Positions 6,159 through 57,245 of a DNA stretch of 64,000 bases are shown here, piece after piece. The notes under the pieces were generated by a model, which saw only the letters and a list, made by a program, of their open reading frames with translations, was not told where the DNA came from and made no database searches. The stretch is from Octopus vulgaris. Its lineage: Eukaryota. The DNA is taken from assembly GCA_951406725.2 (NCBI GenBank), contig OX597820.1, positions 122,512,001 through 122,576,000 of the forward strand, read 5' to 3'. Position 1 is the stretch's first letter, and every line of letters begins with the position of its first letter. The position numbers and the translations under genes were made by a program.

Positions 6159-6359
6159 AGTAGGTAAATGAATTATTCTATGTTTATCGTCAGCATGGAA
6201 AATTCGTTAAACCGAAACCTGGGTAGCAAATTCACACCAGAAAACACAGTTGAAGCGACCTGTCAAGGGTAGAAACTCCGGGTTTATGTGAAGAAATTTG
6301 TGTGTTATATATGAATAAATGAAAGAATGGAGTCGAACGAAGATGTTAACAAAATTCCT

Positions 6360-6390
<31 letters not shown>

Positions 6391-12192: not shown

Positions 12193-12652
12193 TGGACCCG
12201 AAAGAGTCCAGAAGCTGGCTACCTGCATGGTTCTTGGTCTCAAGCATTTGTCTTATGAAGAAAGGCTGAAGACGCTCGACCTTTATTCTCTCGAAAAACG
12301 ACGAAGTCTTGGTGATCTCATTCTTGCTCAAAACATCATAAGTGGAAAGTGTAACCTCTCGAAAGAGCTGTTCTACACTCCTGCTCCAGAGAGTTGGCTG
12401 CAGGGTCACTCCGAAAAGCTCTGTCTGCGACGATTTCATCTCAATTGGAGAGGGGCTTTCTCCGTCCAGGTTGCGGATCCGTGGAATAAGCTGCCAGACG
12501 AGATAGTGAAGATGCCGATGACCACTTGGTTCAAAGTCTCTCTTGACCAGATATGGCTTGAACTCTTTGCCTGAACACCCTCCCTGTACATAACTCCATG
12601 TCCCCCTACATGGCCTTGCTTTTTGCTTTTGAGCCAAAAAATTAACTTAACT
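12193..12652 (+). mobile_element. CR1-group LINE 3' end (second family) with taact tail
   Basis: ERVQKLATCMVLGLKHLSYEERLKTLDLYSLEKRR..GDLI...WNKLP; ends in taacttaacttaa. Confidence 0.8.
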
Positions 12653-12682
12653 TAAATACACATAATTATATACACACATAAT

Positions 12683-12721
<39 letters not shown>

Positions 12722-12981
12722 GAGCCATGGGGAATTGCCCACATTTTTGGAAATTTTTACTTCAAAATTGGAAAACCTAGCTATCAAGCAAAGGAAGACA
12801 ACTTGCCTGGCCATGTTTTTAAAGAGGCTTATTTCAAGAACTATCACCAGCATTCTTGTGTCTTAAAACAAACATTCTTTGCAGAGAATGCTTTCTGTTT
12901 AGGAAAACTGAAGAGATGTCCAGTTCACACTAGATATGAAACCAATGTTCTTTTTACTAAACTTACATTACAAATACACAA

Positions 12982-16965: not shown

Positions 16966-17148
16966 TTGTGAGATAATGACAATTATTATGCAATTTCAGT
17001 TCCTACTTGAATATACATTGAAAAATGTGCAAATGTGTGTGTGTGTGAGTGTGTGTGTGTGTAAGTTAGTATCTGATTCTATGACTTTTTTTTCATTTAT
17101 ATTCTTTCATTGTTTTACTAACCATATATTATTGTTATAAATCAATAG

Positions 17149-17396
17149 GTGCAGTCCAGACTAAAGTCACATACCTCCCAGATGGCGCTGTTGTCATCGT
17201 CTTTCCATCGAACCTTACTGTTGCCTTGGAAACCAGAGGTCATCCGATCCTCGAGAGTAAACATAGGATGCATTTCAAGCGGAAAATGATCATTCCAAAT
17301 TTGTATGTGCACAGACTGGAGTGGCGCTTCTACCTTGACCGATCTGGTCGTCCAAAACAGAACCGCTTACTTGAACGGATTGGACGTCGATTGAGG
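17149..17396 (+). CDS. TENM: Teneurin internal exon (phase 1 to 0): (G)AVQTKVTYLPDGAVVIVFPSNLTVALETRGHPILESKHRMHFKRKMIIPNLYVHRLEWRFYLDRSGRPKQNRLLERIGRRLR
   Basis: Acceptor ...atcaatag at 17147-48 and donor AGG|gtaggg at 17397. The translation matches the teneurin segment ending EWR...GRKLR and joins in frame to INGVNLL of the next exon (vertebrate teneurins read GRKLRVNGRNLLS here). Confidence 0.9.
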
Positions 17397-17984
17397 GTAG
17401 GGCCATACTTCTCCCGGCATGCCAGCATGCATGGTTCGCATGACGACGGATACAAAGGAAAAGCATTGCTGGTATGTGAGACTTTGACTTTTTCTTGTTG
17501 CTTTTTTCGTTACTTTCCCAACTAAATCCCTTCTGTTCCCCTTTTCCATGTTGTTGTCTGGGGATCATTGACGCAAATGTAGTGTGTTTGATATTGGCTG
17601 ATAAATGCATACACAACAGTAGGAACAGTTTTTTTCTAATCAACAATAAAGGATAAAATTAAGATGGAATATTCTCTTAGATTTTGAAGCATCACTTGTT
17701 TCGAGATGGTGCCTTCAAAGTGGAACACTTGTAGTGTGAGATGGTCATTAGGTAGCCACTTGAAATACAGACAGTTATAATCCATTTTGTAGGGGTATGT
17801 TTCTTATATATTTAAGGGTCAGCAGCAAGTCTCTGGCATAAAGCAAGAGACTTTTGATATAAAAGAAAATGAAAAGTGATAATTTATGAGGTATATGTTG
17901 TCTTATCAATAAATACCTGGACTGATGCCAGAGTAACAAAGCTAAAGCACACAGCATAAATTCAGTTGGCACAAATTGACCTTA

Positions 17985-27060: not shown

Positions 27061-27693
27061 AGCAACCCCCACCCCATCCAATGGACAGTGCTGAATCATA
27101 TCTTCTGAATAAAAAGCAATCAGTGTTTTCTTTTCATTAAAAAATAATTAAGCATGCCTTTATTTCAATAAAATTTTTGGTTTTGTTAAACAAAGTTAAG
27201 GCAAAAAAAAATGACTTCTTGAGAAATCAAAGTCTTTCCTTCCTTCCTGCCAAGTTTGAAGAAAATATCTCTTTTGCATCTTACTTTTTTGGTCTCTTAA
27301 AATATACTGCAATTTGTGGCATTATTTCAAGCCATCTGGCTTTTGATGCGCAAACTGCATGTGTATTTTTCTCGTGTACGCATAGTCTTGATCGCAACAG
27401 CTGATGTACTTGCGCATACAAATGCACGTTCCGACGGCTTTATCAATTACATTCTCACCTGGAATCGATTTTTGTAATTTTTTTCAAGACTTATACACAC
27501 TCTGATACCATCGGTATCTACATGTCAAATTTGAGCGCAATCAGATAGAGGCTGCCCGAGATCCTAGAAGACACACAGACAGACAGAATGGATTTTATGT
27601 TATAGATATAAATGGAGTTAAACGTTGTGTTATTCAAATCTTTTTATTTCCAAAATATATTTGAAAGAAAACACTGATGTGTTTGGTTTCTTT

Positions 27694-27781
27694 CTTTCCT
27701 GATGAAAAGATTGCATTGTTTTACATCATTTTATTCCTTCTGGAATAATACCAGTGTTTTCTTTGAAACATATGTCGGAAG
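27694..27781 (+). ncRNA. Type I hammerhead ribozyme motif with long stem II
   Basis: ctttc-CTGATGA(27699-705)-aaagattgcattg...cagtgttttcttt-GAAAC(27765-69)-atat-GTC(27774-76)-ggaag. Confidence 0.7.
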
Positions 27782-28004
27782 CAAAAAGATTTGAATAACA
27801 CTTGTGCTTAACTCCATTTATTTATTTATCTATGTTTACAAAATCATTTCACCAAAACCTGAACTTTCGATCTTTATAAGTAGGCTCTTATATCCTTGGT
27901 ACTTATGTGGATTTTTGCTACCCTGTTAACTATTTATTTGTTTTTTCCCTGTTATTTGTAAACATTGAAAAAAATACACTTACATTGATATATTTTAATC
28001 TATA

Positions 28005-28190
<186 letters not shown>

Positions 28191-45042: not shown

Positions 45043-45096
<54 letters not shown>

Positions 45097-45146
45097 ACTA
45101 AGGACTCCGTGTGGGCAGTCATCTAAAAGGTTTTGTTTGTCATAAG

Positions 45147-45245
45147 TTCCTTGTCTTTCCTGATGAGAAGACGGCATAATGCACTCTTTATTCCTTCGGA
45201 ATTAAGAATATGCCGTCTTTGAAACATGTGTCGACAATAAAGGAA
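45147..45245 (+). ncRNA. Type I hammerhead ribozyme motif with long stem II (same family as 27694)
   Basis: CTGATGA at 45160-66; 12-bp stem II gaagacggcata/tatgccgtcttt; GAAAC at 45221-25, then atgt, then GTC at 45230-32. Confidence 0.75.
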
Positions 45246-45278
45246 TTTTGTTAAATTGTCGTTCGACTCCATTCTTTC

Positions 45279-45315
<37 letters not shown>

Positions 45316-48172: not shown

Positions 48173-48203
48173 CATTATTATTATTATTATTATTATCTTA
48201 CAG

Positions 48204-48503
48204 ATAAACGGTGTCAACTTGTTGACTGTTGAGTACAACCGGGAGACAAACACAGAAACTGTAATGGACAAGTCTATGAGAGACATACTAACAGTTGTCT
48301 ACGACAACACTGGCCTGCCAACCCATTTTCTGCCCAACACTGGTCACAATGACTTGAATATTAGCTACACCAGACACGGCGCAGTAGAGAAATGGCAATA
48401 TGGTGAACTTACTGAACAACGCATGTACGAGAAGGGAATGATGGTGGAAAAGATTTCCACAAATGGCGCTCAATATCGGTATATTTATAGTTACGGGCTT
48501 AAA
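48204..48503 (+). CDS. TENM: Teneurin exon (300 nt, phase 0 to 0), start of YD repeats: INGVNLLTVEYNRETNTETVMDK...QYRYIYSYGLK
   Basis: Acceptor cttacag at 48197-48203 and donor AAA|gtaagt at 48504. Lies in ORF 47946..48608 and is in frame with both neighbouring exons. Confidence 0.93.
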
Positions 48504-55862: not shown

Positions 55863-57245
55863 GAAAATGATGCTTATATTATTGTTAGTATTACTATCAT
55901 TAAATTGACAGGCTTCATTTATATATTTAGAAAACATACTTGTTATCTTATTTTTTAATACCGTGTTAGGTATATAATAGATATTATTATTAAATCCACA
56001 TAGTTTTAGGGTGTTGTTATATATAGGCACATATTGGCTAAAGGCATTCTTGTTCGAAGATAGATTTGAAATCCTAATTGATGTAGCCACTTCGATGTTA
56101 TTAATTGTCAACCTAGGGTGATTGGAGGATACATTAATATATTAGAGAGTTTAATTTGGTTTTCAATCTCTGAAGTTTTTATTTTTTGACCACCGGATTG
56201 GACAGACCATATGCAGCAAATAGGGTATCATCCTTACACAGACCCCCAAAGAGATTAGGAAAGCTACTTTTTATTTGGTCAAGGAGAAATAGGCCCACCA
56301 AATCAGTAACCTGCACTGACTCCAATGAGCCCATCATTATGTCCTGAACAGATCCTTGGAATCCAATTCGGATCATTGTAGTTGATTCAAGTCTCTCTAG
56401 CAACCAGAAAAACATTGATGTCAGATTTTGGGATATCCATGAATTTACGTGCGAAAATTAATGCCTAGTTCAATAAGAATGCGGATATGGACATGTAGTA
56501 GTAGATATATCAAATTGGATGAAGCGAATGGATTTCATATCTTTGAGAGAGTGGCACCAGAAAATCATGTCCTCGGTTGAGTTCCGTAAGGGGAGGATGA
56601 CTTTATGTTTGACAACAGGAACAATTCTATCAATGATGCACTTGCTGATTCTACCCAAATTAGACTGAAAGCCCAGTTTATCTTCCTTCAGGGTAACAAG
56701 GGGGATTTTAGGTGAACACTGCTGGGTCCTATAGAGTAATCCCAATTTCAATATAAGTTCATAGTGTAAATCATTAATTTCCTTCAGAGCAGTAGCATTG
56801 GCATGCTTATAGTTGGTGTTCCATTCCTTGCAGTTTAAGTCATTCTGTATATATATGTCCCATGGTACTGAGTAGATGTTTCTAGTTTTATCCAACAAGA
56901 AAGAAAGATCTGGTGTAGACTTCAGTAGCGATAGAGTTTCAGGCATTTTTTCCTGGAAGGAATTGGTATACCGTGCAAACTTCAGATTTTTCTGCATCTT
57001 CATTAAATTCTCAAACTTAATTAGGGCCAGGTTCAGAAGTGGGTTCTTATATGATTTAAGATTATAAGAATCCTTCTCAACCATTTCTATGTAATTATTG
57101 TAATCCTTTTATTCCCTTGTATCCACTCCATTATTCACTTCCCACCTGAGCCTGTCAATAAATTCCGTTGTTTTGCCCAAAAGAGATTCCATATATCCTA
57201 TCCTTTGATGGAATTGGGATGTTCTTGGTAGACAGTACCAGGCTT
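55863..57245 (-). mobile_element. Decayed Penelope-like retroelement RT (frameshifted, 3'-truncated before any GIY-YIG domain)
   Basis: Minus-strand fragments KNIPIPS, FIDRLRW, DKTRNIY, VTLKEDK, LGRISKCIID, FIQFDI, MGS...DLVGLFLL, GGLCKDD (decayed YxDD) and SNHP follow the PLE RT motif order (ORFs 56470..57084, 56179..56415, 55794..56111). Confidence 0.8.

Follow-up and report, generated by a model that had tools for sequence, protein, structure and literature searches.

A truncated Hydra-clade Penelope-like element with a predicted long-stem-II hammerhead and an inverted arm in a teneurin intron of Octopus vulgaris

The window, a stretch of 64,000 nucleotides of Octopus vulgaris DNA, carries part of a teneurin gene on its plus strand. 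A close teneurin relative maps to 17103-17474 (amino acids 1545-1670) and 48198-48503 (amino acids 1668-1769), with nothing between; together with splice signals it places two plus-strand exons at 17103-17471 (start approximate) and 48204-48503 (end approximate), of which the first had no match among solved structures. They enclose a 30.7-kb intron, 17472-48203, with a donor GT at 17472 and an acceptor AG ending at 48203. The initial annotation had placed two sense hammerhead copies, 17.5 kb apart, within one intron, and both of them, at 27699 and 45160, do lie in 17472-48203 in the sense orientation. The teneurin sense strand has a T-over-A skew of about +0.045, positive in 10/10 bins (window 1-64000 and loci L269 and L270).

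Sequence match and fold analysis predict a type I hammerhead at 27694-27781 on the plus strand, its core elements in the order CUGANGA, GAAA, NUH (27699, 27765, 27774). Stem I pairs 27694-27698 with 27777-27781 (5 bp, one of them G-U), and is followed by the core CTGATGA (27699-27705), stem II (27706-27764; 59 nt, with about 11 of 13 pairs forming), GAAAC (27765-27769) and GTC (27774-27776), with cleavage predicted after C27776. The palindrome ACATATGT at 27768-27775 makes up stem III, a 2-bp stem with an ATAT loop. These motifs, and the TTATTCC/GGAAT cap, stand exactly where they had been reported, and the catalytic core letters of this sense copy are all intact. The three stems can form around the 27699 core; the lowest-energy fold of the copy is a different one. 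Stem I has lost one C, and the 10.1-11.1 pair is A-U, a state seen in 0/136 other intact cores, 117 of which have G10.1-C11.1. An A-U pair at this position slows hammerhead cleavage. Judged from the sequences, G10.1-C11.1 is a character of the family that the window copy has lost through drift. The palindrome, singled out earlier as perfect, is present but nothing special, being the norm in the family (loop ATAT in 87 of the 136 intact cores and ATGT in 40). An Rfam scan of the window returned no hammerhead among the best 150 of 185 matches, and no second same-strand hammerhead motif was found within the 27675-27992 insertion, so that the insertion is not the tandem unit of a non-LTR retrozyme.

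Among eight aligned sequences, 86% of stem cells pair, as against 36-50% in slid controls, and their consensus fold again contains stems I and II; the predicted hammerhead structure is conserved across the eight. The view that the differing stem II sequences reflect compensatory change was not supported: two-sided change occurred in 6 of 24 pairs, a level that 67 of 500 shuffles reached with only eight sequences in the alignment.

The second intronic copy belongs to subfamily B and occupies 45095-45290 (plus strand), with a stem I of 2 bp plus a mismatch at its 45160 hammerhead. It had been described as having the same architecture as the 27699 motif. The two copies are only 69% identical and fall in different subfamilies, that of the 45160 copy being the younger. 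A third motif, hammerhead-like and likewise sense to teneurin, lies at 12908 (12901-12955, plus strand); its stem III is degenerate, and it is nearly identical to the published Hydra-1_Obim hammerhead. No inverted arm was found within about 1.6 kb upstream of the 45160 and 12908 motifs. The 12908 motif sits between microsatellites (12650-12960, plus strand). Two further fragments lie on the minus strand of the window: a subfamily B 3' fragment with a tail and without a ribozyme core, at 6184-6363, and a decayed reverse transcriptase (RT) of another Hydra-like element, with DKT, at 55960-57200, antisense in the next intron (E 2e-31 to protein relative P0071).

The hammerhead at 27694-27781 is part of a 5'-truncated element 3' end (pLTR plus tail) of subfamily A, which alignment to longer copies extends over 27675-27992 on the plus strand, at 89% identity to a long subfamily A copy. 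The feature had been ended at 27822; the element continues to about 27992. The window copy represents the last ~320 nt of the element, without the coding part. Longer copies carry an RT and a GIY-YIG endonuclease upstream, in agreement with the Penelope origin first proposed. Both are decayed, with RT motifs RIRWL, DKT and YRDD and endonuclease motifs YIG and CPLC..E..N..CKH (CPLCNSE..N..CKH), and neither had a curated match in Pfam. DKT is present in 14/20 RT loci among the genome copies, and DKT or DKS in 80 of 82 protein relatives. Of these relatives 57 have RWK and 65 the CxCx5C linker; the subfamily A copies have RWL for RWK and, decayed as they are, no intact CxCx5C linker. The DKT and CxxC..E..N..CxH motifs agree with those aligned for Hydra elements in the PMC8557442 supplement, as far as that was available, and by its motifs the element is assigned to the Hydra clade of Penelope-like retrotransposons. 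Other Penelope traits seen are 5' truncation, inverted arrangement, a one-sided tail and, in locus L032, a partial tandem. In the last case (L032:6503-9316) a full ORF begins after a truncated copy, an arrangement that could bring two hammerheads together.

The tail of ~160 nt (27833-27992, plus strand) is found on the main copy and is absent from the arm described below. A (TA)n microsatellite at 28000-28190 adjoins the element's 3' end, and (TA)n also flanks most other copies inspected; (TA)n is the reported target of Hydra elements in the available part of PMC8557442. On the other side, an unrelated repeat of very high copy number, recognised by sequence depth and loose ends, spans 27396-27600, and its TA-rich end, which adjoins the arm, is likely the left side of the insertion target. 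A 22-nt match of 82% at 27592 and 27992 was considered as a target duplication; the end of the arm and TA-rich sequence both overlap this match, which was not called.

In the sections of Craig et al. (2021; PMC8557442) accessible to us, the Hydra clade shares with the octopus element a short single ORF with its GIY-YIG endonuclease C-terminal, DKT replacing DKG, CxxC and CxH around conserved E and N, (TA)n targets, a 3'-end hammerhead and inverted 5'-truncated neighbours. Subfamily A differs from that account in having RWL for RWK and, in the copies read, no CxCx5C linker. Nor is it Hydra-1_Obim (Octopus bimaculoides) itself, whose hammerhead, which the 12908 motif resembles, has a short stem II, whereas subfamily A has a stem II of 53-61 nt and a tail of ~150 nt instead of 30-40 nt. 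A 12-nt core-plus-stem word of the long-stem-II family is absent from the supplement of PMC8557442, the one catalogue checked, in the form in which it was available. The minimal hammerheads of metazoan Penelope elements, in the accessible text of Cervera and de la Pena (2014; PMC4209133), share with the octopus family the type I topology, a short stem I, a longer-than-usual stem II, the G10.1-C11.1 pair of the family and a palindromic 15.2-16.2 region; they too occur mostly as single dispersed motifs, with some opposite-strand pairs 100-700 bp apart. Their stem II is 7-8 bp, whereas that of the octopus motif is much longer (~12 bp plus a distal hairpin), and the octopus motif is without the extra base between A9 and 10.1. 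Non-LTR retrozymes also have a type I hammerhead, a short palindromic stem III and a high copy number, but they are tandem non-coding repeats, whereas the octopus copies, scattered and truncated, derive from an element that codes for protein.

Head-to-head with the main copy lies an inverted 5' arm, 27601-27676 (minus strand), which alignment identifies as the reverse complement of 27752-27828. It is a second, 5'-truncated copy of the element 3' end, from about +51 to +130 relative to CUGAUGA and without CUGAUGA itself. An imperfect inverted copy of the hammerhead's own 3' half had been claimed here, and the alignment confirms it, with a local score of 95 where shuffles gave a mean of 26 and a maximum of 42 (n=500), and with 84% identity across 70 nt to the repeat in the main copy. 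A 4-nt overlap, ACTG (27673-27676), belongs both to the inner end of the arm and to the 5' end of the main copy, a microhomology of a size that is common at the joints of other loci. The joint is bridged in two further contigs, one from a second sample with the same organism label (2 differences) and one with a different organism label (1 difference plus 3 gaps), which excludes an assembly error. The structure of arm and main copy likely predates the split between the two organism labels.

The region was folded with and without the arm, as the initial annotation had proposed, and the result accords with its suggestion that the arm would sequester GAAAC and GTC. The predicted fold of 27600-27830, a long hairpin (-81.3 kcal/mol, z -11.8), pairs the arm across GAAAC/GUC, and the penalty for adopting the hammerhead fold is 7-8 kcal/mol when the arm is left out and 22-23 kcal/mol when it is included, some 15 kcal/mol more against the active fold, by nearest-neighbour energies at 20 C, which ignore tertiary contacts. 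Elsewhere this cost is 1.4-6.1 kcal/mol for typical members of five subfamilies, with a median of 7.6 in subfamily A. Arm and main copy differ at 12/72 positions, 5 of them in the 17-nt core stretch; among 12 subfamily A pairs this is the most diverged, the others having 5-10 differences with 0-4 in the core stretch. Changes on the arm side lie opposite the core in 5/9 cases (p 0.04, post hoc), an excess that we do not take as selection because the stretch is richer in G+C. A rare variant, G27754, present in 2/49 copies, is common to arm and main copy, and some other pairs share variants in the same way.

The family is large. A 15-nt 3'-core pattern has 7,660 exact matches in the genome, compared with 29 for a reversed control, and first-pass searches of the 2.8 Gb gave 2,175 candidates for 27675-27830 (40 scored) and 2,037 for the 45160 region. 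Elsewhere in the genome, copies reach far upstream of these regions and, as the window copy does, continue for another ~160 nt downstream. Close pairs among the first 100 pattern matches were head-to-head in 15 cases and tail-to-tail in 1, with 0.7 expected by chance. The frequency of inversions was taken from 152 ten-kb loci, comprising 84 from one contig picked by the pattern, hence by an intact 3' core, and 30 A-like and 38 B-like loci chosen by likeness to the window copies. Directly abutting head-to-head pieces occur at 67 of the 152 (44%; 38/84 pattern-picked, 12/30 A-like and 17/38 B-like) and tail-to-tail pieces at 1, in keeping with the earlier remark that inverted partial pLTRs are typical of Penelope insertions. 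Counted as pairs, there are 70 head-to-head and 1 tail-to-tail. Copies end 3' in two classes, at about +130 and about +270 from CUGAUGA, and 52/70 pairs combine a short-ended piece (+110 to +145) with a tail-ended one (beyond +225), as in the window, while the inner ends of the arms spread from -669 to +76. Leaving aside 1 locus without a match and 18 without a whole ribozyme, 133 loci fall into 89 without a covering arm (73 with an intact core), 35 in which each strand holds a whole ribozyme and 9 that combine a whole ribozyme with a partial arm. The last, which is the window layout, is thus a minority (9/151 loci).

Across loci L117-L268, the 3'-end classes lie ~150 nt apart, giving a tail far longer than the 30-40 nt described. 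With 63 segments, the 5' ends of copies in these loci are concentrated 61-80 nt upstream of CUGAUGA, which is partly an edge effect of the subfamily B reference and possibly marks a ~350-nt non-autonomous unit. The 5' ends do not pile up at the cleavage site, and most templates would therefore have been uncleaved RNA.

Very probably, the window insertion is a 5'-truncated 3' end of a Hydra-clade Penelope element whose arm is a by-product of integration, likely not kept by selection. Reverse transcription would have started two times on the RNA of the element, once at each 3' site, with priming from opposite sides of the TA-rich target, and a few bases of microhomology would then have served to join the resulting truncated cDNAs; since insertion, arm and main copy would have drifted apart. 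We infer the double priming from published descriptions of Penelope elements and from the shared variant G27754, which points to one template. As far as the available text of the sources goes, inverted 5'-truncated copies with a one-sided tail are typical of Penelope-like elements (PMC8557442, PMC3846280), opposite-strand pairs of hammerhead motifs occur in Schistosoma (PMC4209133), and two RT start sites have been offered to explain the one-sided Penelope tail (PMC11167929). By the same partial accounts, the Penelope of Adineta vaga (PMC3846280) and PAc of the anole (PMC11167929) share with the octopus copies a head-to-head inverted pLTR shorter than the direct one, an overlap at the joint, a one-sided tail and the explanation by two RT starts, although they belong to a different clade (Penelope/Poseidon). 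GAAAC/GUC sits at +66 to +78 from CUGAUGA and the inner 3' site, near +130, ~55 nt beyond the cleavage site; an arm that begins there therefore covers GAAAC/GUC automatically once its length exceeds ~70 nt.

The initial annotation had seen in the arm a built-in off switch. We regard this as improbable in the form in which the arm arises by chance but an insertion lying sense in an intron persists only where an arm or a mutation has silenced its ribozyme, so that the arm would be what allowed the window insertion to stay. In its favour, the arm would act as a lock by the predicted fold-back and its additional penalty, the sense copy keeps all its core letters, the two unarmed sense motifs of the gene both carry other damage, and a depletion of retrozymes from Xenopus introns is reported (bioRxiv 10.64898/2026.07.22.740005, in the part available). 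Against an off switch stand the arms at 44% of sampled loci overall, the loss of complementarity, greatest opposite the core, the 7-8 kcal/mol by which the active fold is already disfavoured without the arm, and the unarmed sense copies at 45160 and 12908; the two latter motifs are imperfect controls, being otherwise damaged (weak stem I at 45160, degenerate stem III at 12908).

Orientation elsewhere was approximated by the T-over-A skew of the flanks, a proxy for which left and right flanks are uncorrelated (r -0.02, 0.11). With repeats masked, 6/9 partial-arm loci lean sense (mean +0.026, p 0.12), but a lighter mask splits the same nine 4 vs 5, and armed and unarmed loci showed no difference in flank skew (p 0.71-0.76, the proxy having failed to validate outside the teneurin gene). 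A search for nearby exons among the best 150 of 476 candidate frames gave one host-gene match and nine transposon-type matches, and the single host-gene locus has a broken hammerhead core. No literature on orientation bias of intronic hammerheads was found in a search whose coverage left out most subscription journals; papers on octopus and hammerheads, judged by title and the start of the abstract, contained none on intronic orientation.

The likely inactivity of single copies bears on the same question. In the available portions of the sources, a single minimal hammerhead motif from Schistosoma gave no detectable cleavage and dimers gave low cleavage (PMC4209133), as a review repeats (PMC6765202), and cleavage is reported for the anole Penelope hammerhead (PMC11167929); the inactive monomer of PMC4209133 is the Schistosoma motif, not that of the octopus. 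To complete its 2-bp stem III, the ribozyme at 27699 would probably depend on a second copy in tandem, and for this reason a lone intronic copy is likely to be nearly silent, armed or not. We turn only with much doubt to the broader proposal that integration, its inner priming site being just beyond the ribozyme, writes an antisense lock on about one third of sampled whole-ribozyme copies (44/133), of which the host preferentially keeps those that are sense and intronic. On this proposal thousands of arm hairpins in octopus pre-mRNAs could in addition be substrates of ADAR, and editing would then tune the folding of the ribozyme.

An origin of the arm after insertion, in which DNA repair or replication duplicated the sequence locally by fold-back and retrotransposition played no part, is very unlikely. 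Such local copying is compatible with the microhomology at the joint and with the variants shared between arm and main copy, but the arm's outer end coincides with a family-wide 3'-end class, pairs are head-to-head 70 times to 1 tail-to-tail, and the same pattern repeats at unrelated loci. Least credible of all, and scarcely to be entertained, is the suggestion of an active dimer in which the stem III loops of the 27699 and 45160 motifs meet over 17.5 kb and the intron is cut: the loops are compatible, the two 8-mers pairing fully at -7.0 kcal/mol, equal to the homodimer, but this is the default in a family where either loop variant occurs often, each copy would pay ~7 kcal/mol to open (22 for the 27699 copy with its arm), and an ideal-chain local concentration of 4e-8 to 1e-7 M against a Kd of ~1e-5 M falls short, on this rough estimate, by 100 to 300 times, making dimerisation at that distance implausible by about 100-fold or more.

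As it stands, the window copy is an ordinary retrotransposon fossil. The family to which it belongs, with thousands of copies, two sharp 3'-end classes and ~44% inversions, offers a large natural data set that bears on the making of inverted Penelope ends, a matter the cited papers call unresolved, and its long-stem-II hammerhead is a variant of putative activity. An off switch, if true, would mean that selection sorts insertion structures by ribozyme activity. One of the sampled loci also contains, at L229:7663-9159 on the plus strand, a long frame free of interruptions that begins WW-like and gives two PTB matches, an intronless gene or retrocopy that resembles Fe65/APBB.
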